Below are positions 6,501-56,142 of a stretch of DNA of 64,000 bases, one piece after another. The position numbers and the translations under genes were made by a program. The notes under the pieces are model-generated. The model was not told the origin of the DNA. It did no database searches and worked only from the letters and a program-made list of their open reading frames with translations. The stretch lies in NCBI GenBank assembly GCA_965232515.1, contig CBDDPY010000002.1, positions 3,008,001 to 3,072,000 on the forward strand. Direction: 5' to 3'. This DNA comes from Alphaproteobacteria bacterium. GTDB lineage: Bacteria; Pseudomonadota; Alphaproteobacteria; GCA-2731375. Position 1 is the first letter of the stretch. The number at the start of each line of letters is the position of its first letter.

Positions 6501-7644
<1,144 letters not shown>

Positions 7645-36508: not shown

Positions 36509-38881
36509 TCACGGCCGTTCCCGCGAATAGGCCTGGATGGCCTTGGACATCACCGCGCGGTGCTGCTCGTTGTTGACGAAGGCCGGCGTGTTCACCTTGG
36601 CCCAGAGCTTCTCGTCCAGCATATTCTGATGGCAGCCCATGCACAGACCGGTGCGCTCCATCTTCGCCCGCGTCGCCGCCGGCAGCGGGCTGGTTAGCGG
36701 CCAGTGCGAGCCGACCGTCACCAGCTGCTCGTTGTCGCGCGTGACGATCTGCGACAGGTCGTGGTCGAGGTCGGGGATCGCCGGCGACTGCGTCTGGAAC
36801 TGCTTCGGAATGGTCTGGCCCAGGTTGGTCTCCAGATCGACGACGAAGCCCTTGTCGTAGCCCTGCAGGAACCGCCCGTCCTCGATGCCGTAGCCCAGCG
36901 TCTTCGGATTGTTGTGACAGCTCTCGCAGCTCCGCGCCTGGCGCCCGGCCGTGTGCGGCTGCACCGCCGCGTGGTCGAGGCCCTTGCCCTCGGGCGTCAT
37001 CCAGATCTTGTTCTCGACCACGGTGTTGCCGTCCTTGTCGATCACCGTGGTGATGACCTGGCAACCCGGCATCAGCGGACTGACCCGGCCTTCGCCGTTG
37101 ATGCCGAGCGTGGGCGTCTCCCAGCGCAGATAGGACCGCGTCTCGGAGACCTTGCCTTCGCTCTTCAGGCCGTTGGTGCCGAGCGGATAGTCGGCCGACA
37201 GGCCGTTCGCCCCGCGGTCGTTCGCGGTGGTGATCCAGTCGACGTCTGTCTTGTCCTTGGAATAGTCGACCGTGATGTGGCAGCCATAGCACTGCGGCGC
37301 CCAGTCGGCGTGGCAGGCATAGCATTCCATGGTCTCCATGTGCCGGCCGACGGCCGACATCGCCACCATGGCGTTCGGCGACTTCCAGGCATTGTCCTCG
37401 CGCAACTGCTTCAGCACCGGCACGTCGAAGTCGAGCCCGGTGGCCGAGTGCAGGATCACGCGCTTGCCACGCTTGACCACGTTGCCGAACGGGTTGCCGC
37501 GCGCCGTGAGCAGATAGCCGTCCTCGGCCTCGTACTCCGTGGCGAAGTACATGAAGTCCGGCAGCTCGTCGGTCAGGCCACGCGGCGTGTCGCCGATGTC
37601 CATGGCGTGTTCTTCGCCATAGCCCAGCGGCAGCTCCCAGGGGAACTTCGTCACCGTGCCGTGGCAGTCCTCGCACTCGATCTCGACCTGCGCCAGCGTG
37701 GTGCCGAACAGGTTGCCGTCGCCGTGCATGTCGATCGACGTATGGCAGTCCTGGCACAACAGGCCGCCCTGCGGGTTGCCGGCCCGGCTCTGGACCTGGT
37801 GGTGCAGGTCGTCCTTGATAAAGAGATAGTTCTTGGTATGCAGCTTCGGCTGCTTGCCGCCGCCGGCGTTATACGGGCTACCATAGGGGAATTCCATGAT
37901 GCCCTGATAGCTGACGCCGATGCGCTTGCCGCGGTTGTGGCAGGTGTTGCAGGTTTCCGTCGGAATGCCGGAGTATTCGAGCCCGTTGTGCGAGACCTTC
38001 GACTTCCGGGTCGCCTGCATGCGGTGGACCAGCAGATGGCCGGACTGTTCCTTGTTGATGGTCGGATCGCCGCCCTCGTAACGGCCCTCGTTGGAATAGG
38101 GCACGTGGCAGGACGAGCAGCCGGTGCCGCGATAGTCGCCGCGCTTTTCCCGGCCCGACACGCCGACATGGCAGCGCTGGCACTGCTGGCGCGAATAGGT
38201 GATGCCGGCGAGATTGGGATGGGTCGAGATCTGGTTCACGTCGACCGCCGGGACCTGCTTCATCTCGGTCGGCATCTGGTCGGGATGCGCTTCCGCAAAG
38301 GCCGTCATGTATGCCTTGTAGGCGTCAGTGCCGACCGCCGGTTCGATGCCGTCCTCGTCGGTTTGCGTGTAGTTGCCCCAGACCACCTTGCGGTCGGTCT
38401 GCACGCCCCAGGACCAGAGGTTGCCCTGCAGCTTGCCGGCCTCCGTGTTCATCAGCGACTTCAACAACCGCGAGGCATAACCCTGGTGGCACTGGCCGCA
38501 GGTGCGCTCGCCGACGAAGACCGTTCCCGGATCGGGGAAGAACATGTCCGGCCCGTCGTTCTTGGAAAGCTCGGCCGGCGCGCCCTGGTGCGCGGCTTCG
38601 GCCGTGGTGGCGTTCGGGGTGCCGCCGTGGCAGACGACGCAGCCGCCGGGATCGCCGACATCGACGCCCATCAACTCGATGGTTTCCTGCATGGGCCCGT
38701 CGCTGAATCGCTCGATGCCCTCGTGGCAGGACAGGCAGCCCTTCTCGTCGGCCAGCTGTTGCGAGACGTTCGCCGGCGCCGCGGCCTCAACCGTGGCGCT
38801 GCCGCCCGGCCACTCGATCAACGCGGCCGCGGCAAAGACACCCCAAATCCCCCATCGTCCCCATGTCCGGATCAGCCGCAT
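36509..38881 (-). CDS. Multiheme c-type cytochrome (12 CxxCH)
   Basis: Signal-like N-terminus; CLSCH, CVVCH, CGQCH, CQRCH, CSSCH, CNTCH, CQDCH, CEDCH, CYACH, CYGCH, CESCH, CMGCH. Confidence 0.93.
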   Translation of the reverse strand: MRLIRTWGRWGIWGVFAAAALIEWPGGSATVEAAAPANVSQQLADEKGCLSCHEGIERFSDGPMQETIELMGVDVGDPGGCVVCHGGTPNATTAEAAHQGAPAELSKNDGPDMFFPDPGTVFVGERTCGQCHQGYASRLLKSLMNTEAGKLQGNLWSWGVQTDRKVVWGNYTQTDEDGIEPAVGTDAYKAYMTAFAEAHPDQMPTEMKQVPAVDVNQISTHPNLAGITYSRQQCQRCHVGVSGREKRGDYRGTGCSSCHVPYSNEGRYEGGDPTINKEQSGHLLVHRMQATRKSKVSHNGLEYSGIPTETCNTCHNRGKRIGVSYQGIMEFPYGSPYNAGGGKQPKLHTKNYLFIKDDLHHQVQSRAGNPQGGLLCQDCHTSIDMHGDGNLFGTTLAQVEIECEDCHGTVTKFPWELPLGYGEEHAMDIGDTPRGLTDELPDFMYFATEYEAEDGYLLTARGNPFGNVVKRGKRVILHSATGLDFDVPVLKQLREDNAWKSPNAMVAMSAVGRHMETMECYACHADWAPQCYGCHITVDYSKDKTDVDWITTANDRGANGLSADYPLGTNGLKSEGKVSETRSYLRWETPTLGINGEGRVSPLMPGCQVITTVIDKDGNTVVENKIWMTPEGKGLDHAAVQPHTAGRQARSCESCHNNPKTLGYGIEDGRFLQGYDKGFVVDLETNLGQTIPKQFQTQSPAIPDLDHDLSQIVTRDNEQLVTVGSHWPLTSPLPAATRAKMERTGLCMGCHQNMLDEKLWAKVNTPAFVNNEQHRAVMSKAIQAYSRERP

Positions 38882-39170
38882 AATACGCCCTCCCTGATGC
38901 CGTCCCGGGGTCCGCGTCGCCGCCCTCCAACATCCCCTTTGGAGCACCGCGCGCGGGATATGTAGGGGGAATCTTAGCCGAAGAACCGAATTTGTTTCTA
39001 CCAAGCGCTTGGCTTGGTTATTCCGAGTTAATTGGCGGGTCTTGTTTCAGTTTTGTGATGCATCGTTTGGCGGAAAGCCGGGAAAAGGCAGCCGAACATC
39101 GCCCAATCCTCTGGCGGGGACCGAACAATATCCGAGTCATCTACTGTGTTAATTGCAGCCGCAGCCGGCA

Positions 39171-39992
39171 TCACGCCGCTGACAGCTCAAATACGCGACG
39201 GGCGTTGCCGGAGAGGAACAGCGCCTGCACGTCGTCGGCCAGGTCGAGGGCGTCGAGGCCAGCGAGGCAGCGGCTGGGCGACAGCATGGGCCAGTTGGTC
39301 CCGAACAGGACGCGGCTCTTGCCGGCGCCTTTCATGAAGGCGACGAGCTCGGGCGGCAGGCGATGCACGGCATAGGCCGAGGTGTCGACATAGAAATTCG
39401 GGAACTTGTGGGCGAGCGAGATCACCTCGTTCACCCAGGGGAAGCCGACATGGCCGCCGACCACGACGAGCTCGGGAAACTCGAGCAGCACGTCCTCCAG
39501 ATAGGGGATCGGCCGGCCCGGCTCAGAGCGGCAGAGCGGCCCGGTATGGCCGATCTGTGTGCAGAACGGCACGCCGGCATCGATGCAGGCGGCGTAGACC
39601 GGATAGTAGCGCCGGTCGTTCGGCGGCAGGTCCCAGAGCCAGGGCACGACCCGCACGCCGACAAAGCGCTCGCCATCCACCCACTGCCGGATGTCGCGCA
39701 CTGCCTGCATCGGCTCCCGAAGGTCAACCGTCGCCAGGCCCCGGAACCGGTCCGGCGCCTGTTCGATCTTCCCGGCCACGTCCTCGTTCGAAATCAGCAC
39801 CCCGTCCGGCCCGCACCAGGCCGACAGCAGGGCAATCTCCACCCCGCCCTCATCCATGGCCGCAAGCGTCGTCTCGACCGTCGGCACGCTGCCGTCGTCC
39901 GGCCGCCCGGTCCAGCGCAGCAGCGTTTTCAGCCACGGCGCCGCCGCCATGCGCGGCGTCGTGATCTGCGCCCAAACATCGATCGCGCCCAT
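39171..39992 (-). CDS. Amidohydrolase family protein (amidohydro_2-like)
   Basis: YYPVY..C....VP...Q.GH.GP, FPELVVVGGHVG.PW, YVDTSA, VLFGTNWP. Confidence 0.88.
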   Translation of the reverse strand: MGAIDVWAQITTPRMAAAPWLKTLLRWTGRPDDGSVPTVETTLAAMDEGGVEIALLSAWCGPDGVLISNEDVAGKIEQAPDRFRGLATVDLREPMQAVRDIRQWVDGERFVGVRVVPWLWDLPPNDRRYYPVYAACIDAGVPFCTQIGHTGPLCRSEPGRPIPYLEDVLLEFPELVVVGGHVGFPWVNEVISLAHKFPNFYVDTSAYAVHRLPPELVAFMKGAGKSRVLFGTNWPMLSPSRCLAGLDALDLADDVQALFLSGNARRVFELSAA

Positions 39993-40238: not shown

Positions 40239-40697
40239 ATGTCGGCCGCCGAACACCGCCTCTATTTTCTGTTGCAGATCGCCGCCCACCGCCTGCGCAC
40301 CGAGGCCGACCGGGCGCTGCTGGACACGGCCGGCGTGACCACGGCGCAAGCCGCCGTGCTGCAGCTTGTCGCCAGCCTGTCCGAGCCGACCCAGCGCAAG
40401 CTCGCCGAGTTGCTGCAGCAGAACGAGTCAGCGATCACCGCCATGGTCGGCCGGCTGACGGCGGCGGGCCTGATCGTCCGCGCCCCGCACCCGACCGACG
40501 GCCGGGCCTGGATCCTCGAACTGACGCCGCAGGGCGAGGCCGCGATCGAGGCCGGCCGTCCGGCCTTCAACGCCATCAACGCCGCCCTCGACGCCGCCAT
40601 CGGTGACAAAAACACCGCCCGGTTCGGCGCCACGCTCCGGGCCATCACCGACGAACTTGCCGCCCGGCAGCGGGATGGCGACAAGGCCGCCGACTAA
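40239..40697 (+). CDS. MarR-family transcriptional regulator
   Basis: GVTTAQ..VL, TQRKLAELL, ITAMVGRL...GLI.R....D.RA..LELT..G. Confidence 0.92.
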   Translation: MSAAEHRLYFLLQIAAHRLRTEADRALLDTAGVTTAQAAVLQLVASLSEPTQRKLAELLQQNESAITAMVGRLTAAGLIVRAPHPTDGRAWILELTPQGEAAIEAGRPAFNAINAALDAAIGDKNTARFGATLRAITDELAARQRDGDKAAD

Positions 40698-42490
40698 GGC
40701 TTTTCGTCCGGCGCCGCCGCGTCCAAGCCCGCCTGACGCAGGCCATCGAGAAAATAGAGGTCGTCGGCGGGGTTCTTGTAGAGCGGATGCAAGGCCCAGC
40801 GCCGCGCGAAGCCGGGATCGAGGCGCTCGCATTCCGCCAGCGCCGCCCGCGCCTCGTCGGCCCGGTCCAGATGCCCCAGCGCCGCGGCGTGCACCAGATG
40901 CGCCAGCGCATAGTCCGCCCGCCGCTGGATCGCCGTCTCGGCCCAGCGCGCCGCATCCTCGGGCGCCCGCGCGTTCAGATACGCGCGGGCCACCATGACG
41001 ATGGTGAAGTGGATGCGCGGGTTCTGCGGGTTCAGCTTCAGCGAGCGTTCCATATTGACGATGCCGTCGTCCGGCTGGCCGGCGAGGCTCTGCGCGATGC
41101 CGAGCGCCGAGAACGCCACCGCGTTCGAGGGATTGAGCCGCACCGCCTCCTCGCCGGCCGCGATCGCCTGGGTAAGCTGCCGGTCCCAGGTGAAGGCGAA
41201 GGCCAGCACGCAATGGGCCTCGGAATTCGCCGGATCCAACGTCACTGCCTGCCGCGACGCCGCCAGCATGTCCCCGATCGCCGCCGCCCGATCCTCGACC
41301 GATCGGAACAGCAGGTCTCGGTGATAGCTGGTGGCAAGGCCGACATAGCCCTCGGCATAGGCCGGGTCGAGCCCGATCGCCTGCGCGAACAGGTCCCGCG
41401 CCTCCCGGTTGCCGGCGGGCGTGAAAGCTTCCAGCAGTGCCCGTCCCTGCAGGCAATGCCGCCAGGCCGTCATGTCGGTCGGCCGCACCGGCGCCACCCG
41501 CGCGCGCTCGGCCCGCTCCACCTCGGGCGCGATCGTCGCCGCGATATGGTCGGTGATTTCGTCCTGCAGCGTGAAAACGTCGTCGGCCTCGCGGTCGAAC
41601 TTTTCCGCCCAGAGGTGATGGCCCGTCGCGGCGTCGATGAACTGGGCATTGACCCGGACCCGGCCGGCTCCGGTGCGGATGCTGCCTTCCAGCACGTAGC
41701 GGGCGCCGAGCTCGCGCGCCGCGACGCGCACGTCGGACGACTGGCCCTTGTAGGCAAAGGTCGAGTTGCGGGCGATCACCGGGAACGAGCGCCAGGCGGC
41801 CAATGCCGTGATGATGTCTTCTGTCAGGCCGTCGACGAAATAGTCGTCCGCCGGATTGCCGCCCATATTGTCGAACGGCAGCACGGCCACCGCCTGCCAG
41901 TCCTCGTCCGCGACCGCCGGTTCGACAGCCGTTTCGACCGCCGGGGCCGGGTTTACGGCCTCGTCGCCGTTCATGACGACCTGATAGGCGCGGATGGGCC
42001 GGCCGATATTCTTGAGCGTCACGTCGCCGAGATCGACGAACGAAAATTCAGGGCTGGCGGCGAGATTGCCGTGCACCATGTCCGAAATGCAGATCCCGCC
42101 CGGCGGCGCCAGCCCCTCCAGCCGCGCCGCGACGTTGACGCCGTCGCCGAGATAGTTGCCCCGGTCGACCACCACGTCGCTCAAATGCAATCCGAACCGC
42201 ATCAGCATCCGCCGGTCCTCGGGCACGTCGGCGTTGACGTCGGCCAGGAAGCGCTGCACGTCGACGGCGCAAGCAAGCGCGTCGAGGACGCTGCCGAATT
42301 CGAACACCACGCTGTCGCCGGCTGAGTTGAACAGCCGGCCATGGTGGTCTTCCGCCACGTCGACGATGTATTCGCGATAGGCCGTCCAGTTCTGAACCGC
42401 CAGTTCCTCGTTCAGCCCCATCAGCCGGCTATAGCCGACGACGTCGCCGGCCAGGATCGCGACCAGCTTGCGTCTCATCTCCCCCACCAT
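40694..42490 (-). CDS. Class III cyclase - TolB_N-like - TPR protein (catalytic motifs intact)
   Basis: AILAGDVVGYS, AGDS, GDGVNVAARLE, LKNI; AVLPFDN..DYFVDGLTEDII, VIARNSTF, YVLEGS; TPRs. Confidence 0.9.
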   Translation of the reverse strand: MVGEMRRKLVAILAGDVVGYSRLMGLNEELAVQNWTAYREYIVDVAEDHHGRLFNSAGDSVVFEFGSVLDALACAVDVQRFLADVNADVPEDRRMLMRFGLHLSDVVVDRGNYLGDGVNVAARLEGLAPPGGICISDMVHGNLAASPEFSFVDLGDVTLKNIGRPIRAYQVVMNGDEAVNPAPAVETAVEPAVADEDWQAVAVLPFDNMGGNPADDYFVDGLTEDIITALAAWRSFPVIARNSTFAYKGQSSDVRVAARELGARYVLEGSIRTGAGRVRVNAQFIDAATGHHLWAEKFDREADDVFTLQDEITDHIAATIAPEVERAERARVAPVRPTDMTAWRHCLQGRALLEAFTPAGNREARDLFAQAIGLDPAYAEGYVGLATSYHRDLLFRSVEDRAAAIGDMLAASRQAVTLDPANSEAHCVLAFAFTWDRQLTQAIAAGEEAVRLNPSNAVAFSALGIAQSLAGQPDDGIVNMERSLKLNPQNPRIHFTIVMVARAYLNARAPEDAARWAETAIQRRADYALAHLVHAAALGHLDRADEARAALAECERLDPGFARRWALHPLYKNPADDLYFLDGLRQAGLDAAAPDEKP

Positions 42491-42556
42491 CCCCGTAAAG
42501 GCAGGCCGTTTCCGGCCCGCGCCGTTTAGTATGTCACGCCCCACGGTCCGGCACGA

Positions 42557-44347
42557 TCATCCGAGCTCGGCCGCGGCATCGAGCCCCGCCGCGCGCAGGC
42601 CGTCGAGGAAATAGAGGTCGTCGGCCGGGTTCTTGTACATCGGCCTGAGCGCCCAGCGCCGGGCGAAGCCGGGATCGAGGCGCTCGCATTCGTCGAGCGC
42701 AGCGCGGGCTTCGGCGCTGCGCCCGAGATGGCCGAGCGACGCGGCGCCCACGAGATGGCCCAGCGGATAGTCCGCGCGCCGCTGCACCGCGGCCTCCGAC
42801 CAGCGCGCCGCCGCCTCCGGCGCCCGCGCATTGAGGTGGGCGCGCGCCAGCATGGTGATGACGAAATGGATGCGCGGATCCTGTGGGTTCAGGCGCAGCG
42901 ACCGCTCCAGGTTGATGATCCCCTCCTGCGGTCGGCCGGCAAAGCTCTGCGCCATGCCGAGCTGGGCGTAGGCCAGCGCGTTGCTTGGGTTCAGATGCAC
43001 GGCCTCCTCGCCGGCGGCGATCGCCAGATGGAACTGCCGGTCCCAGATCAACCCGAAGCCGAGCACGCAATGGGCCTCGGCATTGGCCTGGTCCAGGCTG
43101 ACGGCCTGCCGCGCGGCTTTGAGCTGCGCCGCGATCGCCTGGCCGCGGTTGGGCGCTGTCTCGAACCAGATCTCGCGATGGTAGCTATAGGCGAGACCGG
43201 TGTAGCCGCCGCTGTAGCCCGGGTCGCGCGCAATCGCCTGCTCGAACATCGTCCGCGCCTCGGCGTTGTCGGCCGCCGTGAACGTTTCCATCAACGCCCG
43301 GCCCTTCAGGCAATAGCGCCAGGCCGTCATATCAGTCGGCCGCGCCCTGGTGACGCGGTCGCGTTCCGCCCGCTCGACCTCCGGCGCGATGGTGGCGGCG
43401 ATATGCTGGCCGATCTCGTCCTGCAGCGCGAAGACATCGTCGGCCTCGCGTTCGAACGTCTCTGCCCAGAGCAACCGCCCCCGCGCGGCGTCGACGAACT
43501 GAACGTTCACCCGCACTTGCTGGTCGACCATACGTACGCTGCCTTCCAGCACATAGCGCGCGCCCAGATCCCGCGCCACCGCCCGCACGTCGGGCGACTT
43601 GCCCTTGTAGGCGAAGGTCGAGTTCCGCGCGATCACCGGAAACGACCGCCAGGCCGCCAAGCCTGTAATAATGTCCTCGCTCAGGCCGTCGACGAAATAG
43701 TCGTCACGCGGGTCGTGGCCCAGATTGATGAACGGCAGCACGGCGACGCTCGCCTGTTCGCCGGCCTCGTCCGCCGGCGCCTGCTCCGACGTCAGCGCCG
43801 CGGACGCATGATCGGCGCCGTTAAGCTCGACCCGGTAGGCCCGCATCGGCGGCGCGCCGTCGTTCGGCTTGACCTCGCCCAGCGCGGCGAAGGCGAACTC
43901 GGGACTGGCCGCCACATTGCCGTAGACCATGTCCGACACGCAGATCCCGCCCGGCGCCGCCAGCGCCTCCAGCCCGGCCGCGACGGCGACCCCGTCGCCG
44001 CGATAGGCGCCGCGGTCGACGGCCACCTCGCTCAGATGCAATCCGAACCGCATTAGCATCCGCCGCTCCGGCGACACCGTCTCGTTTACGTCGCGCAGGA
44101 ACTGCTGCACGTCGACGGCGCAGCGCAGGGCGTCAAGCACGCTGCCGAACGCGAACACCATGCCGTTCCCGCCGCCATCGAACCGCCGCCCCTGATGGTC
44201 GTCCACGGCGTCGCCGACATATGCCCGGTAGGCCTTCCAGTTCTGCACCGCCAACTCTTCGTTCTCGGCCACCAGCCTGTCGTAACCGGCGACATCGCCG
44301 GCCAGGATCGCGACCAATTTGCGTTTCATCTCACTCACCCTTGCCAT
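42557..44347 (-). CDS. Paralogous cyclase - TolB_N-like - TPR protein with a degenerate cyclase site
   Basis: Same architecture as 40694-42490, but GGNG replaces AGDS and GDGVAVAAGLE replaces GDGVNVAARLE. Confidence 0.88.
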   Translation of the reverse strand: MARVSEMKRKLVAILAGDVAGYDRLVAENEELAVQNWKAYRAYVGDAVDDHQGRRFDGGGNGMVFAFGSVLDALRCAVDVQQFLRDVNETVSPERRMLMRFGLHLSEVAVDRGAYRGDGVAVAAGLEALAAPGGICVSDMVYGNVAASPEFAFAALGEVKPNDGAPPMRAYRVELNGADHASAALTSEQAPADEAGEQASVAVLPFINLGHDPRDDYFVDGLSEDIITGLAAWRSFPVIARNSTFAYKGKSPDVRAVARDLGARYVLEGSVRMVDQQVRVNVQFVDAARGRLLWAETFEREADDVFALQDEIGQHIAATIAPEVERAERDRVTRARPTDMTAWRYCLKGRALMETFTAADNAEARTMFEQAIARDPGYSGGYTGLAYSYHREIWFETAPNRGQAIAAQLKAARQAVSLDQANAEAHCVLGFGLIWDRQFHLAIAAGEEAVHLNPSNALAYAQLGMAQSFAGRPQEGIINLERSLRLNPQDPRIHFVITMLARAHLNARAPEAAARWSEAAVQRRADYPLGHLVGAASLGHLGRSAEARAALDECERLDPGFARRWALRPMYKNPADDLYFLDGLRAAGLDAAAELG

Positions 44348-44414
44348 CGCGCCGCCCTTCAAAGCGCCCCGCTCCGACGACAAATGTCATCGAGACCGCC
44401 CGCGAATACGAGCT

Positions 44415-44430
44415 TGTCACGGTGAGTCAC
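44415..44430 (-). promoter_or_regulatory. GTGACTCACCGTGACA motif upstream of the cyclase pair
   Basis: 15/16 identical to 46348-46363 (GTGACTCACGGTGACA); contains GANTC. Confidence 0.55.
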
Positions 44431-44497
44431 ATGGTCCTGGCAGGGACTCGGAGGATCTGATCGACAGGCGAAGATCAGCCTTGGCTTCGCATGCCGC

Positions 44498-44584
44498 TGG
44501 ATGCCTGGGTCGCGCCCGGGCATGACGAATTCCTTATTGGAATCAAAAGCTAACCGTCATTGCCGGGCTTGACCCGTCAATCCA
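44498..44584. repeat. Palindromic intergenic repeat, family A
   Basis: TGGATGCCTGGGTCGCGCCCGGGCATGACG..CGTCATTGCCGGGCTTGACCCGTCAATCCA. Confidence 0.85.
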
Positions 44585-44604
44585 GAAAAAAGGCGTCAGC
44601 CGGC

Positions 44605-46272
44605 TCAATCGGGAACGCGCAGGCCCGCCTTCCGCAGGCCATCGACGACCTGACCGATCAGGTCCTCGGGCATGTTCCAGGCGGCGAGGAAGTCCCGGAC
44701 ATACGCGCCCATGTCGGGGACGAGTTCCAGCAGCTTGTCGCAGGCCGCGTGCCCTTCCCGTTCGCGTCCGAGCTGGCCGTAGCACATGGCCAGCAGCATG
44801 TAGGCCGCGAAAAACTGCGGCATCTGCAACTGCTTGGCTTCGGCCAATGCGGCTTCGTAGTCGCCTTGTCGGTAATGGTCGACGACGGCGGCCACGTGGA
44901 ACCAGCCGGGATGGGTCGGGCTTAAGGCGATCGCCTTGTCGGCGAGACCGACGCCACGCTCCCACTCGCCGCTGAAGGCCAGCATGATCCCGTAATCCGC
45001 CAGCATGTCGGCATGGTTCGGGTTCAATGCCACGGCGCGCTCGCCCGTCGCCCGGAAGTCGTCAAGCTCGCCGCGATGGAAGTGCGCGCTGAACAGATAG
45101 TGGTAGGCCATCGAGCTTTCCGGATCGAGCAGCACCGCCCGCTGCGCCGCTTCGAGCGCCCGGTCCAGCGGGTCGCCGTCGCGCCGGGGGTTGAAGCGGA
45201 ACCGCGCTTCGTCGAGATGCATCGCGGCCAGCGCCGCCCAGGCGCCGGCGTATCCCGGATCGAGCTCGACGGCCCGCTCGAGCGCCGCGCGCACCGACTC
45301 GTGCTGTGTGGTTTCGGCGTTGAACCAGTATTCGTAGAACCGAAGCACCGCGTCATAGGCGTCGAGGTGCTGCGAGGACTTGGCGCGGGCCAGCCGCGCG
45401 CCGGCGCGAGCGACGACGCCATAGGGCTGGCCGACGGCGGAAACGATACGGTCGGCGATATCGTCCTGGATCTCGAAGATGTTCTGCGCCGACAGGTCGC
45501 GGTCGTAGGTTTCAGAGAACAGGTGGGTCGCGCTGGCGGCGTCGATCAACTGACCGGTCACCCGGACCATGTCGCCCGCCTTGCGCACGCTGCCCTCCAG
45601 CACGTAGCCGACGCCCAGATCCCTGCCCACGTCGCGCACGTCGATGCGCTGGCCCTTGTACTTGAAGGTCGAGTGGCGCGAGATCACCCGCAGGTTCGGA
45701 AACCGGGTCAGGTCGCTGATGATCTCTTCGGTAACGCCGTCGGCGAAGAAGTCCTGGCCGGGATCGCCGCTAAGGTTCTCGAACGGCAGCACGGCGATCG
45801 CCGGCCCGGTCGGCAGCGCCAGCGCCACGTCGCCCGATGCGGCATCCAGCTCCGCTGCTGCTTCGGGCCGCGCGGGCGCGTCCGACTGTTCCGGCTGCGT
45901 CGCCCGGAACAAAGGCGCATAGGTGCCCTTCGGCAGATCGATCCGGACGCCGTCCGCCCGCCCATCGGTCAGGTAATAGCGCTCCAGCCGCCGGCGCAGG
46001 CGCCCGGCCTCGACCCGGACGATCGTATTGGTCTGCGGATCGAAGCTCTCGTCGCGCTCGAAGACCTCGGTGGCGATGGTGTATTCCTTCAGGCGGTCGC
46101 CACGCTCGGCCAGCGCCTCCTCCACGACAAACGACAGGAACGACTTCATCCGGTCGGACTGCGCGAAGTCGGCACTGCCGAGGATCCGTGCCAATTGTGC
46201 CCGCACGGCGGCATCCGACGGCGCCGCGCCGCCCGCCGACTGGCCCTGAGATGATGATTCGGAGACGGCCAC
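44605..46272 (-). CDS. TolB_N-like/TPR protein with a putative N-terminal DNA-binding domain (no cyclase domain)
   Basis: QLARIL.S..F..S.RM..FL.FVVEE.L...LKEYTIA.EVF.R..FDP....IVRVEAGRLRRRLERYY..PKG.Y.P; AVLPFENLS; TPRs; GTG start after an AGAGG RBS. Confidence 0.85.
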   Translation of the reverse strand: MAVSESSSQGQSAGGAAPSDAAVRAQLARILGSADFAQSDRMKSFLSFVVEEALAERGDRLKEYTIATEVFERDESFDPQTNTIVRVEAGRLRRRLERYYLTDGRADGVRIDLPKGTYAPLFRATQPEQSDAPARPEAAAELDAASGDVALALPTGPAIAVLPFENLSGDPGQDFFADGVTEEIISDLTRFPNLRVISRHSTFKYKGQRIDVRDVGRDLGVGYVLEGSVRKAGDMVRVTGQLIDAASATHLFSETYDRDLSAQNIFEIQDDIADRIVSAVGQPYGVVARAGARLARAKSSQHLDAYDAVLRFYEYWFNAETTQHESVRAALERAVELDPGYAGAWAALAAMHLDEARFRFNPRRDGDPLDRALEAAQRAVLLDPESSMAYHYLFSAHFHRGELDDFRATGERAVALNPNHADMLADYGIMLAFSGEWERGVGLADKAIALSPTHPGWFHVAAVVDHYRQGDYEAALAEAKQLQMPQFFAAYMLLAMCYGQLGREREGHAACDKLLELVPDMGAYVRDFLAAWNMPEDLIGQVVDGLRKAGLRVPD

Positions 46273-46343
46273 CGCTGCCTCTCATATTCTCTAAATGCGA
46301 GACCCCGCAACAGGTTAGCAGCCACCTCCCAGACTGTCGACGG

Positions 46344-46363
46344 CACCGTGACTCACGGTGACA
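46344..46363 (+). promoter_or_regulatory. Palindromic operator-like site centred on GANTC
   Basis: CACCGTGA-C-TCACGGTG perfect palindrome (46344-46360) in the divergent intergenic region before the RND operon. Confidence 0.6.
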
Positions 46364-46450
46364 CACTGCTCTTCGCCCAGCCCCGGCCGCACATTGTCGA
46401 CCGTGCAAGGGCCGCGACCGGCCCGCAATCGAGGCGACGAGAGGCTGAAA

Positions 46451-47596
46451 ATGGGAACCGAAGCGAACGCAACATATCCACATCGGACGATGCGCCTGAC
46501 CGGCCTGGCTGGCGCGTTCGCCGTCCTGCTGGTCCTGCCCGCCTGCCAGGAGGCGGCGCAGGTCGACAAGAACGCCGTGCGGTCGATCAAGTGGACGACC
46601 CTGACGTCAGGCACCGCGGCGCAGGAACGCCGGATCGCCGGCATCGTCGAGCCGGTCGATGTGACTCAGCTCAGCTTCGAGATCCCCGGCCGCGTGCGGA
46701 GCTTGCGCGTCCGCCTGGGCGACCGGGTCAAGGCCGGCGACGTGCTGGCCGAGCTGGACCAGGAACCGTTCCGGCTGCATATCCATCACGCCGAGGCCGA
46801 GGTCGCCGCCGCGCATGCCGTCTACAAGGAAGAAGTCCAGAATCTGGAACGGCAGCGCATCCTTTTCGACAAGGGTTGGATCGCGCAAGCGCGGCTCGAC
46901 ACCGCGGTCGCCAGCCACGACGCGGCCGAGAGCCAGTTCGGCGCCCGCCGGGCGCAGCTCCGCCTGCGCCAGCGCGACCTGCGGCAATCGCTGATGCGGG
47001 CGCCGTTCGACGGCGTGATCTCGAAGAAGACCATCGAGGCCTTCGAGGAAGTGGCGGCCGGCCAGCCGGTGTTCGAGCTGAGCGGCGAGCGCAAGCTGAA
47101 AGTGACGCTGCGCGTGCCGCCGACGCTGATCAACCGCGTGCGCCAGGGCGAGGCGGTCGCCGTCGCGTTCCCCAGCGGCAAAGTCCCCGCCGCCACGGGC
47201 GTCGTCACCGAGATCGGCAGCCGGGCGGCCGAAGCCAACGCCTTTCCCGTGACCGTGACCTTGCGCCAGGCGCCCGACGGCTTGCGCGCCGGCATGTCGG
47301 CCGAGGTTACGTTCCGGTTCGCCGACACGGCCACGCGCGGCGACGGTCTGATGGTGCCGATGGCGGCGATCACCTCCGGCAACGGGCAGGCCAACCATGT
47401 CTTCCGCTTCGACAAGGCCAGCTCGACGGTCCGGCGCGTGCCTGTCGAGATCGAGAACCTGCACTACAACGACGTGCAGATCGCCGGCGACCTGAAGGCC
47501 GGCGACATCATCGCCATCGCCGGCGTCGACTTCCTGAGCGACGGCCAGCAGGTCCGCCTGATGACCAAAGAAATGCCCTATGGGGAGGGAGCCTGA
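46451..47596 (+). CDS. RND efflux periplasmic adaptor (membrane fusion protein)
   Basis: Lipobox-like LPAC, LSFEIPGRV, GDRVKAGDVLAELD, RAPFDGVI, LRAGMSA. Alternative start at 46490. Confidence 0.92.
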   Translation: MGTEANATYPHRTMRLTGLAGAFAVLLVLPACQEAAQVDKNAVRSIKWTTLTSGTAAQERRIAGIVEPVDVTQLSFEIPGRVRSLRVRLGDRVKAGDVLAELDQEPFRLHIHHAEAEVAAAHAVYKEEVQNLERQRILFDKGWIAQARLDTAVASHDAAESQFGARRAQLRLRQRDLRQSLMRAPFDGVISKKTIEAFEEVAAGQPVFELSGERKLKVTLRVPPTLINRVRQGEAVAVAFPSGKVPAATGVVTEIGSRAAEANAFPVTVTLRQAPDGLRAGMSAEVTFRFADTATRGDGLMVPMAAITSGNGQANHVFRFDKASSTVRRVPVEIENLHYNDVQIAGDLKAGDIIAIAGVDFLSDGQQVRLMTKEMPYGEGA

Positions 47597-47599
47597 GCC

Positions 47600-50500
47600 A
47601 TGAACCTGACCGGATTCGCGCTTAACAACACCCGCCTGACGGCGCTTGTTGTGGCCATGTTGGCCATCGCCGGCGTGCTGCTGTTCCTGAACTACCCCAG
47701 CAAGGAGGACCCCGAGGTGACGGTGCGCGAGGCGGTGGTCGCCGCCTATTTCCCCGGCATGTCGCCGGAGCGCGTCGAAAACCTGATCACCCGCAAGCTG
47801 GAAAAGGAAATCCGCCGCATCCCCGAGGTCAAGAAGATCAAGTCCAGCTCGAAGACCGGCGTCTCGATCATCCACGTCGTCGTCTACGACCGCTTCTTCG
47901 AGATGGAACCGATCTGGCAGAACCTGCGCAACAAGATGGCCGAAGCCCGGCCGCAACTGCCGCGCGGCGCCATCGGTCCCTTCGTCAACAGCGACTTCGG
48001 CGACGTCAACGTCGCCACCGTCGCGCTCACCGCCAACGGCTTCTCGTTCGAGGAGATGCGCAAAGTCGCCCGCGACATCCGCGACGAGCTCTACGCCGTC
48101 GACGGCATCCGCCGGGTCGAGCTGCATGGCGTGCAGCGGGAACGGATCTACCTCGAAACCACGAATGCGCGGCTCGCCCGCTACGGTCTGTCGCCCGAGG
48201 AGCTGATCGCCACGCTGGAGGCGCAGAACATCATCCTGCCGGGCGGCCGCGTCGAAGTCGGCGGCTACGGCGTCGTCATCGAGCCGAGCGGCAATTTCGA
48301 TTCCATCGACGACATCCGCGACACCGTGATCACCATCCCGGCCACCGAGCAGGTCGCCTATCTGCGCGACGTGCTGAACGTGCGCCGGGCCTACGAGGAT
48401 CCGCCGCAGGCGCTCGCCTATTACAACGGCGAGCCGGCCATCGTGCTCGCCGTCTCGATGCAGAAGACGGGCGTCAACGTGCTCGACTTCGGGCCGCGCA
48501 TCAAAGAGAAGATCGCCGAGATCGAGGCCGAGCTGCCGGTCGGCTACGCCCTCGACTTCGCCACCTACCAGGCGGACTACGTCGCCGAGTCGGTCGAAGG
48601 CGTCACCCTCAACGTCTACGAGACGCTCGGCATCGTGCTGGCCATGGTCATGCTGTTCCTGGGCTGGCGCACCGGCCTTATCGTCGGCTCGATCGTGCCG
48701 CTGACCATGCTGGTCTCGCTGGTGCTGATGAGCGTGTTCGGCATCGAGCTGCAGCGCGTCAGCCTGGCGACCATGATCATCGCGCTCGGCCTGCTGGTCG
48801 ACAACGGCATCGTCATCGCCGAGGACATCGGCCGGCGCATGGCCGAAGGCGCCAGCCGCCGCGAGGCGGCGCTCGGCACCGGGCAACAGCTTTCGCTGCC
48901 GCTGTTGACCTCGTCGCTCACCACCATCCTCGCCTTCATGCCGCTGATGCTGGCGAGCGACAGCTCAGGCGAGTACATGCGCTCGATGTCGCTGGTCATC
49001 CTGATCGCGCTGATGACCTCGTGGCTGCTGGCCATGTGCTTCACGCCGCTGCTCTGCGTCTGGTTCATGGGCCAGCCCAAGCAGACGCCCGAACAGGTCA
49101 AGGCCGCCTTCGACGGCCGCGTCTACCGCATCTACAAGGCCTTCCTGCGGCTGCTGCTGAGGGCGCGCATCCCCTTCGTCGGCGCGGTCGCGGCCGGCCT
49201 CGTCGGCGGTTTCATCCTGCTGGGCCAGGTGCCGCAGCAGTTCTTCCCGGAATCCTCACGCAACCAGTTCTACATCTATCTCGACCTGCCGAACGGCGCC
49301 ACGACCAAGGCCACCGACGCGACCGTGCGCGACGTCGTCGAATGGCTCGGCGACGAGACCGTCAATCCCGAGGTCGTCGCCAACGTCGCCTATGTCGGCT
49401 ACGGCGGCCCGCGCTTCTTCGTGCCGCTGGCACCGCGTGACGAGGACCCGCATGTCGCCTTCGTGCTGGTCACCGTCACGGACGCCGCCGCCGTCGACGT
49501 GGTGCAGGAACGCGCCCGTAGCTATTTGGCCGAAACCCATCCCGAGGCGCTCGGCCGGCTGAAGAAGTTCTTCCTCGGCAACTCCGAGACGGGACTTTTG
49601 GAAGTGCGGGTGCGCGGCCGCGATCTCGACACCGTGGCGGCATTCGGCAAGGACGTCGAGGCGGCGCTCCGCGCCATACCCGGCGCCATCGACGTGCACA
49701 ACAACTGGGAGAACCGGACCACCAAGATCCAGGTCAAGATCGACCAGACCCGGGCGCGCCGGGCCGGTGTCACCTCAAAAGAAATTGCCCAGAGCCTGAA
49801 CGCCTTCTTCTCGGGCGGCACCGTCACGGCCTACCGCGAGGGCGACCAGGTGATCCCGATCGTGCTCCGGGCGGCCGACGCCGAGCGCACCAATCTCGAC
49901 CGGCTGCGCTCGATCGAGGTCTATTCGGAAAGCGGCGGCCATAGCGTCCTGCTGTCTGACGTCGCCGACTTCGTGCCGGTCAATCAGTACAGCCGCATTG
50001 AGCGCTATAATCTCAAGCGCACCGTCACCGTGCAGGCCAAGCACTCCTGGCTGCAGGCCATTGAGCTGGTGCAGGCGCTCGAGCCCGCGCTCGCCGAGAT
50101 CGAAGCCAAGTTGCCGGCCGGCTACAGCATCGAGATCGGCGGCGAGCCCGAGGACGCGGCAAAGGGCCAGGACGCGCTGTTCGAGTTCGTGCCGCACTGC
50201 CTGGCGCTGATCGTGCTGCTGCTGGTCTGGCAGTTCAACTCCTTCGCCAAGCCGGCGATCATCTTCATCACCATCCCGCTGTCCTTCGTCGGCGCCGCCA
50301 TCGGCCTGTTGGCGACGGGCGCGTTCATGGGCTTCATGGCGATGCTCGGCTTCCTCAGTCTCGCCGGCATCATCATCAACAACGCCATCGTGCTGCTCGA
50401 CCAGATCCAGGTCGAGATCGACGACGGGGCGACGCCCTACGACGCCGTCATCAACGCCTCGGTCAGCCGCTTCCAGCCGGTGATGATGACGACGCTCACC

Positions 50501-50701
50501 ACCATCCTCGGCCTGCTGCCGCTGATGCTGCCGCCGGATCCGCTGTTCTTCGCCATGGCGGTGGTGATCGCGGCCGGGCTGTCGGTCGGCACGATCCTGA
50601 CGCTCGCCACCGTGCCAGTGCTCTACACGCTGTTCCACGGCGTCAAGATCCCGCGCGGCGACAGCGCGGCGGCGAGCCCGGCGTTGGCCCCGGCCGAATA
50701 G
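47600..50701 (+). CDS. RND efflux transporter permease (AcrB/AcrD/AcrF family)
   Basis: 1033 aa; PGMSPERVE, ALGLLVDNGIV, GIIINNAIVL, RFQPVMMTTLTTILGLLPL. Confidence 0.96.
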   Translation: MNLTGFALNNTRLTALVVAMLAIAGVLLFLNYPSKEDPEVTVREAVVAAYFPGMSPERVENLITRKLEKEIRRIPEVKKIKSSSKTGVSIIHVVVYDRFFEMEPIWQNLRNKMAEARPQLPRGAIGPFVNSDFGDVNVATVALTANGFSFEEMRKVARDIRDELYAVDGIRRVELHGVQRERIYLETTNARLARYGLSPEELIATLEAQNIILPGGRVEVGGYGVVIEPSGNFDSIDDIRDTVITIPATEQVAYLRDVLNVRRAYEDPPQALAYYNGEPAIVLAVSMQKTGVNVLDFGPRIKEKIAEIEAELPVGYALDFATYQADYVAESVEGVTLNVYETLGIVLAMVMLFLGWRTGLIVGSIVPLTMLVSLVLMSVFGIELQRVSLATMIIALGLLVDNGIVIAEDIGRRMAEGASRREAALGTGQQLSLPLLTSSLTTILAFMPLMLASDSSGEYMRSMSLVILIALMTSWLLAMCFTPLLCVWFMGQPKQTPEQVKAAFDGRVYRIYKAFLRLLLRARIPFVGAVAAGLVGGFILLGQVPQQFFPESSRNQFYIYLDLPNGATTKATDATVRDVVEWLGDETVNPEVVANVAYVGYGGPRFFVPLAPRDEDPHVAFVLVTVTDAAAVDVVQERARSYLAETHPEALGRLKKFFLGNSETGLLEVRVRGRDLDTVAAFGKDVEAALRAIPGAIDVHNNWENRTTKIQVKIDQTRARRAGVTSKEIAQSLNAFFSGGTVTAYREGDQVIPIVLRAADAERTNLDRLRSIEVYSESGGHSVLLSDVADFVPVNQYSRIERYNLKRTVTVQAKHSWLQAIELVQALEPALAEIEAKLPAGYSIEIGGEPEDAAKGQDALFEFVPHCLALIVLLLVWQFNSFAKPAIIFITIPLSFVGAAIGLLATGAFMGFMAMLGFLSLAGIIINNAIVLLDQIQVEIDDGATPYDAVINASVSRFQPVMMTTLTTILGLLPLMLPPDPLFFAMAVVIAAGLSVGTILTLATVPVLYTLFHGVKIPRGDSAAASPALAPAE

Positions 50702-50713
50702 GGAGGACGGATC

Positions 50714-51388
50714 ATGCCTGCCGTCACCGAAGCCGCGCCCGCCTTCGTCGGCAGGCTCGACGTCCGCCGCCACCGCTTCGTCCTGCTGCTGGCATCGCTC
50801 GTGCTGCTGCTGGTGCTGTCGCCGGCGCTGGATGGCAGTCCGGCGGGCAGCCTGCTGATCGCCGTCCTGTTCACGCTCGTGCTGCTCGCCGCGGTGTTCG
50901 CGGCGGGCGGCCGTCGGTCGACGCTGGCCGTCGCACTCGGCTTCGCCGTGCCCTGGCTCTACTTGAGCTGGCTGCATCCGCTCTGGCGGGCCGAGCCCAT
51001 CGACGTGGTCGCGGATCTGCTGCTGATCGGCCTCGCGGCCTACGTGCTCGCCCTGGTGCTGGCGCGCGTGCTGCGGGCGGAACGCATCGGCGTCGACGCC
51101 ATCTGCGGCGCCATCGCCGTCTATCTGCTGACCGGTGTGGTCTGGGCCGTCTGCTACGGCGTCATCGAGGCGCTCGCTCCCGGCTCGTTCCGCCTCGCCG
51201 ACGCGGACGCCGGGATGGTCTGGAACCAGCTCCTCTACTACAGCCTCGTCACCCTCACGACGCTCGGCTACGGCGACATCACCCCGCTCACCGCCGCCGC
51301 CCGCATCTGGTCGGCGCTGGAAGCCGTCACCGGCACCCTCTACCTCGCCGTCCTCATCGCCCGCCTCGTCAGCCTCTACCGCCACTAG
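50714..51388 (+). CDS. Potassium channel family protein (Ion_trans_2)
   Basis: YYSLVTLTTLGYGDITP selectivity filter after several TMs. Confidence 0.9.
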   Translation: MPAVTEAAPAFVGRLDVRRHRFVLLLASLVLLLVLSPALDGSPAGSLLIAVLFTLVLLAAVFAAGGRRSTLAVALGFAVPWLYLSWLHPLWRAEPIDVVADLLLIGLAAYVLALVLARVLRAERIGVDAICGAIAVYLLTGVVWAVCYGVIEALAPGSFRLADADAGMVWNQLLYYSLVTLTTLGYGDITPLTAAARIWSALEAVTGTLYLAVLIARLVSLYRH

Positions 51389-51404
51389 GACGGCGCGTCA
51401 CAGA

Positions 51405-55983: not shown

Positions 55984-56142
55984 TTGGTGGAAACACGGTC
56001 GTGCTGAGCCAGTAGGTCTGCGCTCAGACTGAGTTGGAGCTATCATACCGCAATGCGCAGCCGTATTTTATGACTTTACGGTTGATTACGGTGACAGTGC
56101 ACTTAACACGGGATGTACAGCCGGCTACACACCGGCCGTCAC

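Follow-up and report, generated by a model that had tools for sequence, protein, structure and literature searches.

In a 64,000-nucleotide stretch of an alphaproteobacterial genome (GCA-2731375 lineage, assembly GCA_965232515.1, contig CBDDPY010000002.1, positions 3,008,001 to 3,072,000; referred to here as the window), two copies of a 16-bp element, GTGACTCACSGTGACA, flank a gene coding for a 555-aa protein (P0001) that carries tetratricopeptide repeats (TPR). On one side of this gene lies a pair of cyclase-like genes, and on the other the genes of a resistance-nodulation-division (RND) adaptor and pump followed by a K+-channel-like gene. The question that the locus raises is which protein reads the two copies and which genes are controlled through them. 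An earlier reading of the DNA, made without database searches (the sequence-only reading), proposed that the TPR protein is itself a one-component transcription factor that binds GTGAC repeats and co-regulates cyclic-nucleotide signalling, efflux and the K+ channel, possibly in a methylation-sensitive way. We have found that the cis-element is conserved, locus-specific and tied to the gene family of the regulator. Judged from gene order, site arrangement and predicted fold, it is probable that P0001 is a one-component regulator which binds its own flanking operators and controls the adaptor-pump-K+ channel operon together with the cyclase pair.

The copies lie at 44415-44430 (minus strand) and 46348-46363 (plus strand), an exact match to the positions and orientations first reported for them, and read GTGACTCACCGTGACA and GTGACTCACGGTGACA, respectively. 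Both are oriented toward their own downstream gene: the first stands 67 or 85 bp from the candidate ATG codons (44347 or 44329) of the first cyclase-like gene, and the second stands 87 bp from the ATG of the RND adaptor gene (46451) and 75 bp from the GTG start of the regulator gene (46272). The second copy had been described as a perfect palindrome around GACTC, and it does lie inside a perfect palindrome of 17 bp, CACCGTGA-C-TCACGGTG (46344-46360), whose centre is the C of GACTC; in the first copy the palindromic part is limited to GTGAGTCAC. One GANTC sequence is present in each copy (GACTC/GAGTC). Taken to 19 bp, the sites are referred to below as operator A (GTGACTCAC-G-GTGACACAC, 46348-46366, plus strand), which occupies the 178-bp intergenic region between the divergent regulator and RND adaptor genes and has its GACTC at 46350-46354, and operator B (GTGACTCAC-C-GTGACAAGC as read on the minus strand, 44412-44430), located 175 bp past the stop codon of the regulator gene.

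That the element might be a frequent repeat of the genome, as the sequence-only reading had allowed, was not borne out, as just two close copies were found in the 7.39 Mb of the source genome (G000). When up to two mismatches were allowed, GTGACTCACSGTGACA had only two matches in the window, where shuffled sequences led to an expectation of 0.03 and none of 100 shuffles gave two or more, and five matches in the whole genome (7,386,992 bases), namely the two exact copies and three unrelated places with two mismatches each; the reversed pattern, used as a control in the genome search, matched once. These searches confirmed that GTGACTCACSGTGACA is a locus-specific element and no genome-wide repeat. 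The looser pattern GTGAC-N5-GTGAC occurs nine times in the genome, two of them at the regulator locus (20 occurrences for N4 spacing and 17 for N6), and the 9-mer GTGASTCAC is found in eight places, again two at the locus, with the sGTnA continuation present in none of the other six.

Like the element itself, its association with the regulator gene was followed into other genomes, and the motif recurs near homologous genes there, as the sequence-only reading had anticipated. Among 40 relatives a full-length orthologue was found only in a genome of the same genus (G001, 87% identity), in which both sites are present. In species-representative genomes, orthologues of the N-terminal domain of P0001 (the N-domain) were found in a Kiloniellales metagenome-assembled genome (MAG; locus L036, 72% identity), in two Paracoccaceae MAGs (L037 and L038, 44-45%), in a Pseudomonadota MAG (L046) and in others. 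The Kiloniellales locus keeps the pump-regulator-cyclase synteny and carries GTGACTCACGGTAACA and GTGACTCACCGTTACA at the equivalent places. In L037, L038 and L046 the sites are of the type GTGAsTCACsGTGAA or GTTAA and are found alongside the regulator gene, ahead of the gene of an AI-2E transporter, behind a TerC gene or opposite a DUF308 gene; in the Paracoccaceae loci the sites are kept and the neighbours are instead DUF308, AcrB, TerC, AI-2E transporter and unknown genes. The core GTGAsTCACsGTnA is retained beside orthologues, some of which have other neighbours, at about two copies per genome. The pattern GTGASTCACSGTNA occurs exactly twice in each of four genomes (G422, G423, G424 and G425; reversed controls, 0), with seven of the eight copies at the locus of the orthologue and the eighth, in G425, inside a 691-aa open reading frame (ORF), where it is probably due to chance; in G133 a one-mismatch version lies 52-65 bp ahead of the orthologue. 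In 840,261 bases of fetched loci, GTGASTCACSGTKA with no or one mismatch was confined to loci that encode an N-domain and was absent from about 95 cyclase-type loci. Two loci (L062, L070) had been left out of the N-domain set, their upstream sequence reading as a cyclase N-terminus and the tblastn coverage of the N-terminus being misleading in this regard.

Intergenic alignments with G001, G422 and the metagenomic locus L183 revealed the operator as the main conserved island in otherwise diverged DNA. Operator A is the best-conserved block of the four-way alignment of its intergenic region, and operator B is the only block shared with G422 between the regulator and cyclase genes. Orientation is kept as well, and the distances to the start codons are nearly the same in G000 and G422 (87 and 89 bp for the adaptor gene, 67 and 67 bp for the cyclase gene). 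When the neighbours of these loci were searched for a recurring second DNA-binding or regulator gene none was found, and the sole neighbour that stays with the sites throughout is the regulator gene. The same comparisons bear on the idea that the inverted copies are the terminal inverted repeats of a small, perhaps formerly mobile cassette, as might be thought of two mutually inverted copies that bracket a single gene 1.95 kb apart. However, no transposase or recombinase is encoded between them, no flanking target duplication is visible at the locus, the gene is single-copy in the genome, and elsewhere the number of sites per locus is one, three or four, with different spacings. In G001, G422 and L183 the synteny with the pump and the cyclases is preserved, and such a constant position speaks against a cassette, an origin that we regard as exceedingly improbable.

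A wider view was obtained from the N-domain family as a whole. Of 400 other genomes sampled from the class, 22 have the domain, and its profile matched 21,537 cluster representatives at E ≤0.001, and 18,303 at E ≤1e-10, out of 1.84 billion. From a metagenomic set of 573 confirmed stretches 80 were kept, and upstream regions were tested in 75 loci against 71 coding controls. The skeleton GTnACnGTnAnnnAC, which operators A and B fit when read on the opposite strand (GTCACCGTGAGTCAC), was found within the upstream 430 nt of 23 of the 75 family loci and in none of the controls, and k-mers such as GTACGTAAC were found in the upstream window of 15 of the 75 and again in no control. Across 351,116 bases of metagenomic loci the skeleton has 33 places, of which 23 are no more than 470 bp before the N-domain, five just past the gene (+1626 to +1983), repeating the flanking arrangement of the window, and five elsewhere; as background it turns up 4.3 times per Mb in G000 and 3.2 times per Mb in 95 loci of cyclase or other type. 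Most common is the variant GTACGTTAC-n-GTTACGTAC, whose 9-bp arms form a near-palindrome; in one locus the palindrome is perfect. In the delta-type clade the operator is a 19-bp near-palindrome located about 40-50 bp ahead of the start codon of the regulator gene.

These comparisons altered one part of the sequence-only reading, which had described the element as a GTGAC direct repeat with a 10-bp period. Such a repeat does exist in the clade of P0001, but it is not the conserved unit: in a spacing test on GT[GTA]AC pairs in 33 family upstream regions, the 10-bp spacing was confined to this clade, and the direct repeat was rejected as a general rule. The conserved unit is instead a series of alternating GTGA/TCAC-type tetrads spaced by 5 bp, which this clade has as GTGAsTCACsGTnA and the family as a whole as GTnACnGTnAnnnAC. 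The short core T.AC[CG]GT.A was likewise rejected as a definition of the operator, being too degenerate (857 copies in G000).

Three further matches stand apart from these results. An operator-like sequence, the third in the window, lies at 56074-56097; it is a tandem of two TTACGGTKRA units ending in GGTGACA, fits the skeleton at 56081-56095 and stands in an AT-richer region, apparently between gene ends, with about 700 bp free of long ORFs and adjoining ORFs that have no Pfam match. A skeleton match (GTCACCGTCACGGAC, 49469-49483) within the AcrB-family pump gene is probably a chance occurrence. Outside the window, at C2:3612570-3612594 of G000, three GTCAC units with 10-bp spacing are some 600 bp away from the gene of a response regulator that has a Trans_reg_C domain (C2:3611758-3611988) and may be a pho-box-like site.

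Since GTGACA resembles TTGACA and stands at the gene-proximal end of both copies, with orientation and start-codon distance conserved, it might be asked whether the shared sequence is simply a promoter element, with GTGACA as the -35 hexamer or with the whole as the element of an alternative sigma factor; the model of the N-domain, discussed below, is similar to sigma region 4 too, with lower Z scores (4xln_F 5.5, 6dv9_F 5.2). Yet the gene-proximal hexamer proved to be the least conserved part of the element (GTGACA, GTAACA, GTTACA, GTGAAC, GTTAAG), and the invariant part is the palindrome upstream of it. A promoter-consensus scan of 44250-46550 returned no promoter-like site and with it no matching -10, the 19-bp near-palindrome of the delta-type clade does not have the shape of a promoter, and there are just two copies per genome. 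A promoter element is thus a highly improbable explanation. A terminator scan gave two terminator-like sites where 1.2 were expected, none of them at the operators. Between operator A and the start of the regulator gene (46312-46341, minus strand), the blocks GTCGAC (46336-46341) and GGTTAGCAG (46313-46321) are invariant or nearly so in four sequences, and a candidate promoter of the regulator gene, with TCGACA as -35, a 17-nt spacer and TAACCT as -10, may be proposed there by inference only.

The protein encoded between the sites, P0001 (44605-46272, minus strand), consists of the N-domain, a divergent winged helix by prediction (residues 19-126; 45895-46218), a linker that is disordered in the full-length model (residues 128-146), a TolB_N-like alpha/beta domain (residues ~158-280; 45433-45801) and TPR repeats (residues ~303-548; 44629-45366), all on the minus strand. 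The TPR families matched above their cut-offs (TPR_17 48.2 bits, TPR_2 38.7, TPR_19 39.0, TPR_14 29.2). The middle domain has a partial match to TIGR02800 (TolB; residues 157-281 against profile positions 23-149, E 8.9e-7, 28.2 bits against a cut-off of 343), and PF04052 is listed for some homologues. The Pfam matches in P0001 are TPR families alone, with no phosphotransfer domain, no match to PF00211 and none to PF00486 above the gathering score. The C-terminal module is 33% identical over 405 aa (E 1e-51) to that of the adjacent cyclase-like protein, which upholds the claim that the gene between the sites shares a TolB_N-TPR module with its neighbour, and the basic stretch VRVEAGRLRRRLERYY singled out in the N-domain is found at residues 85-100.

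The winged helix that had been expected at the N-terminus was recovered in structural models. In an AlphaFold2 model of residues 1-140, made from a 32-row alignment, the mean predicted local distance difference test score (pLDDT) was 79.5 and most positions between residues 20 and 125 exceeded 85; a full-length model had a pLDDT of 86.6 and showed in turn the N-domain, the linker, the alpha/beta domain and the helical repeats. The elements predicted are helices 20-31, 40-54, 58-69 and a long helix 84-102, followed by a beta-hairpin (109-112/121-124), and a three-helix core with a long recognition helix and a C-terminal hairpin wing is thus present in the model. With Foldseek the ten best matches in the PDB were all DNA-binding domains of the OmpR/PhoB family (E 0.27-1.1). 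A VIA structure search of 48,161 chains pointed the same way (PrrA Z 7.9, GlnR 7.2, CpxR 7.1 and PhoP 7.0, followed by ArlR, VicR, AdeR, KdpE and CadC at 6.3-6.8, with CadC at 6.3), and the OmpR/PhoB matches aligned 76-90 residues over 19-124 at a root-mean-square deviation of 2.9-4.0; unrelated winged helices were matched too (BrxC Z 7.1, a Fic protein 6.2). When 22 N-domains were aligned by hhalign to 17 Trans_reg_C domains of G000 (E 7.3e-4, probability 26%, 69 columns), the register was the expected one, with IVRVEAxRLR at the recognition helix and PKGxY at the wing. A search of PDB sequences with the N-domain profile (hmmsearch) found no regulator, and the sole match in a Protein Atlas search was an unnamed cluster (0.87). 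We take the N-domain to be a divergent winged helix placed at the output position of a one-component system, and P0001 would join sensor and output in a single protein that binds DNA through its output domain.

The strongest argument for the N-domain as an output domain is a domain swap. A paralogue of 537 aa, encoded at C2:1260564-1262174 of G000 (L171:178-1788, minus strand) and 44% identical to P0001 over 448 aa, has a canonical Trans_reg_C domain (E 1.2e-14) before the same TolB_N-like/TPR module, and as the canonical domain holds the place of the N-domain there, an output function for the latter is suggested. The module is thus found with three alternative outputs in G000: a cyclase, a canonical Trans_reg_C domain and the divergent N-domain, which is single-copy in this genome. 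Several further ORFs of about 440-580 aa, possibly of the paralogue type, were among the matches of the PF00486 search.

A second line of evidence joins the protein to the DNA. In P0001 the predicted recognition helix is capped by T83, which immediately precedes the IVRV motif, and the identity of the residue at this position was seen to vary with the tetrads of the sites. With threonine, all six loci with sites have GTGA/TCAC tetrads (three purely, three mixed); with proline, 19 of 20 have GTWA/TWAC tetrads only; and with serine, four loci are of the W type and two are mixed. This co-variation fits a direct read-out by the recognition helix, and is suggestive only, the loci being related.

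Several observations weigh against P0001 being the protein that binds the sites. No Pfam family was found in residues 1-285, and no DNA-binding match in Pfam or NCBIfam for residues 1-150, even at E 10, and the gene was not among the 28 places returned by a six-frame search of G000 with PF00486. OmpR/PhoB domains have a four-stranded antiparallel beta-sheet before helix 1, and in the model the region before helix 40-54 holds helix 20-31 and no strands. The Foldseek E-values are weak, at best 0.27, all Z scores of the N-domain are under 8, a range that with the VIA tool can reflect a common arrangement, and the hhalign probability is only 26%. On the side of the DNA, 52 of the 75 metagenomic loci and the greater part of the class-level sample had no skeleton match upstream, near-identical operators are numerous in the metagenomic set, which was not de-replicated, such that the 23 of 75 and the co-variation counts overstate independence, and the short core is barely enriched over whole loci (0.17 against 0.10 per kb). 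In addition, OmpR-type proteins typically bind direct repeats about 10-11 bp apart, and a 5-bp spacing of tetrads is unusual.

With an N-domain that has no recognised DNA-binding family match and middling fold scores, and with 28 Trans_reg_C proteins encoded in G000, it could be argued that the operators are real but are bound by a transcription factor encoded elsewhere, the TPR protein being a co-regulated target or a signalling protein that does not bind DNA. We consider this unlikely, since the motif tracks the regulator family across orders and into other phyla as the neighbours change, other regulator genes do not recur nearby, the bases of the motif co-vary with a residue of the TPR protein, and some two copies per genome are an ill fit for a global factor. 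Binding by P0001 itself is preferred.

It is proposed that P0001 would act as a cytoplasmic one-component transcription factor of 555 aa, with a divergent OmpR/PhoB-like winged helix as output and the TolB_N-like and TPR domains as sensor. Its winged helix would contact both operators of about 19 bp, and given their dyad symmetry the protein would probably bind as a dimer or a higher oligomer. Operator A would give it control of its own promoter and of the divergent RND adaptor-pump-K+ channel operon, and operator B control of the cyclase pair, in response to a signal received by the TolB_N-like/TPR module, which the neighbouring cyclases also carry. As orientation and start-codon distances are kept between genomes and fit an activator site beside the -35, we lean slightly toward activation of the two outward operons, which may be placed only slightly above repression. 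The position of the operator in the delta-type clade would suit auto-repression.

The genes that would come under this control are arranged on both sides of P0001. The RND membrane-fusion (adaptor) gene (46451-47596, plus strand; HlyD_3, E 1.3e-19) is followed on the same strand by the gene of the AcrB-family inner-membrane pump (47600-50701; ACR_tran, E 1.7e-171) and by the K+-channel-like gene (50714-51388; Ion_trans_2). As the last starts 13 bp past the pump gene, it probably belongs to the pump operon. The presence of a K+ channel, noted in the sequence-only reading, is sustained by the Ion_trans_2 match with a TLGYGD filter after the pump gene both here and in the 72%-identical orthologous locus of G422, where the channel gene (67% identity) has the same filter. 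On the other side and on the minus strand lie the first cyclase-like gene (P0002, 42557-44347; its longest ORF runs from 44383 and its likely start is the ATG at 44347 or 44329) and the second cyclase gene (P0003, 40694-42544), which matches Guanylate_cyc (PF00211) just below the cut-off (E 2.5e-4, 21.1 bits against 21.9). P0002 carries the same TolB_N-like/TPR module as P0001 and has no PF00211 match; it has GNG and GVAVAAGLE in place of the catalytic motifs GDG/GDS and GVNVAARLE, and P0003 keeps GDS and GVNVAARLE. The two look like a pair of one degenerate and one competent cyclase. Of the proposed co-regulation, the linkage of channel and pump was thus seen again in G422, and the link to the cyclases is specific to this clade. 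Beyond the cyclases, an amidohydrolase gene (39174-39992) and a multihaem cytochrome gene (36512-39004) are found, both on the minus strand.

When the DNA of positions 40600-51400 of the window was sought in sequencing runs, it was found in runs labelled with a single organism, the RNA libraries of which are poly-A-selected, with small shares in coral and marine metagenomes, and the bacterium may be host-associated. In the four runs compared with the stretch, no poly-A raw reads fell on it, and two RNA-contig runs gave only short pieces of 95-99% likeness at low depth.

Elsewhere in the family the neighbours are of other kinds. The near-palindrome clade has among them a conserved secreted protein, about 280 aa long and unmatched in Pfam, and RND components are found in L183 and L189. 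The secreted protein ends in FLFPK/R and has the look of an outer-membrane barrel; in the clade with the GTACGTTAC operator its gene and the regulator gene are divergently transcribed (L224:1940-2794, L230:1977-2810, L250:2099-2956, L047:2450-3292 and L198:2025-3011, all on the minus strand). Among the family proteins, P0072 has a hydrophobic insertion (alignment columns 141-200) that separates the N-domain from the TolB_N-like domain, and some relatives may be membrane-anchored in the manner of ToxR and CadC. In P0124-P0129, P0238, P0250 and P0254 the N-domain profile matched in two stretches, and these proteins may have tandem N-domains.

Like binding, methylation was also proposed to play a role at the sites. 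The preconditions are present, as each site contains a GANTC and the genome encodes, within the window but apart from the regulator locus, an orthologue of CcrM, the GANTC adenine methyltransferase (6562-7644, plus strand), which is the sole PF01555 match in the genome and is similar to CcrMI (PDB 6pbd; phmmer E 8.8e-157, residues 9-359). Most operators of the family (GTACGTTACnGTTACGTAC type) have no GANTC, and it follows that GANTC lies outside the basic recognition code. The observed/expected ratio of GANTC in the genome is 0.45, which is not diagnostic, other palindromic skeletons being equally low. It may be speculated that the N-domain is a large unrecognised DNA-binding family, with at least 18,000 cluster representatives, that reads arrays of alternating GTnA/TnAC tetrads and in which the capping residue sets the variable base, that its sensor is shared with class III cyclases and receives the same signal, and that in the alphaproteobacterial branch a GANTC gained in the operator arm lets CcrM methylation, full or, after replication, hemi, gate binding. 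We hold this whole scheme to be quite doubtful; if true, the cell cycle would be linked through it to efflux, K+ flux and signalling by cyclic nucleotides.

No description of the family or its operator was found in a search of the literature with motif strings and domain architecture (subscription journals lay outside its scope), and no Pfam model, the newest dating from 2025, covers the N-domain. The family members listed go under the names 'hypothetical', 'TPR protein' and 'TolB-like', or under 'adenylate cyclase', which is wrong; the last label, of which the sequence-only reading had complained, is given by JGI to P0094, P0102, P0105 and P0112, none of which lists PF00211. If the N-domain were recognised as a winged-helix output with a predictable operator, thousands of genes would be re-annotated as regulators. 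The local regulons seen so far are mostly concerned with envelope and transport (RND pumps, AI-2E transporter, TerC, K+ channel and a putative outer-membrane protein). With one sensor module on three outputs, the signal of the module could be approached through a simple transcriptional read-out, and the link of capping residue and variable base would offer a directly testable specificity rule for DNA recognition.

Several known systems resemble P0001 in part, the nearest in architecture being one-component regulators that join a winged helix to TPR repeats (HilA/EilA, SARP/AfsR, CadC/ToxR-type regulators and the Trans_reg_C-TolB_N-TPR paralogues); P0001 belongs to none of the curated families against which it was tested. 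In HilA of Salmonella and EilA of E. coli an N-terminal OmpR/ToxR-type winged helix is likewise followed by a TPR-containing region within one cytoplasmic protein, and a passage of the literature describes HilA as a DNA-binding activator of the OmpR/ToxR family (PMC7232297). P0001 is not a member of this group (model NF009037, 18.2 bits against a cut-off of 589, over the TPR region only), and HilA, for which no TolB_N-like domain match is shown, has different targets and a different operator. CadC, ToxR and TcpP also have an N-terminal OmpR-type winged helix (Z to the N-domain model 6.3 for CadC and 5.6 for TcpP), yet they are membrane regulators, and the linker of P0001, as read from its sequence, has no hydrophobic segment; nor does P0001 belong to the CadC model (NF007540, 17.9 bits against a cut-off of 400). 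As in SARP/AfsR-type regulators, which have an OmpR-like domain and BTAD/TPR (AfsR, Z 5.2), the winged helix predicted in P0001 is joined to helical repeats that would serve as sensor or scaffold, but no BTAD or NB-ARC domain was detected in it, and the lineage and operator are others. The methylation-dependent CcrM/GcrA promoters of Alphaproteobacteria are similar in that each site here has a GANTC and the genome a CcrM orthologue, and differ in that GANTC is missing from most operators of the P0001 family. The PhoB/OmpR response regulators share the fold predicted for the N-domain and the 10-bp periodic component of the site (GTGAC...GTGAC), and TGTCAC resembles the TGTCA half-site of the pho box; unlike them, P0001 has no receiver domain, and its element is made up of alternating inverted tetrads or a near-palindrome rather than a simple direct repeat. 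The Trans_reg_C paralogues with TolB_N-like and TPR domains are, to our knowledge, uncharacterised. Their N-domain is the canonical PF00486, whereas that of P0001 goes undetected by PF00486 and has a helix in place of the N-terminal beta-sheet, and they share with P0001 the length class, the sensor module, an N-terminal DNA-binding domain, which in P0001 is a predicted one, and an architecture free of receiver and kinase domains.

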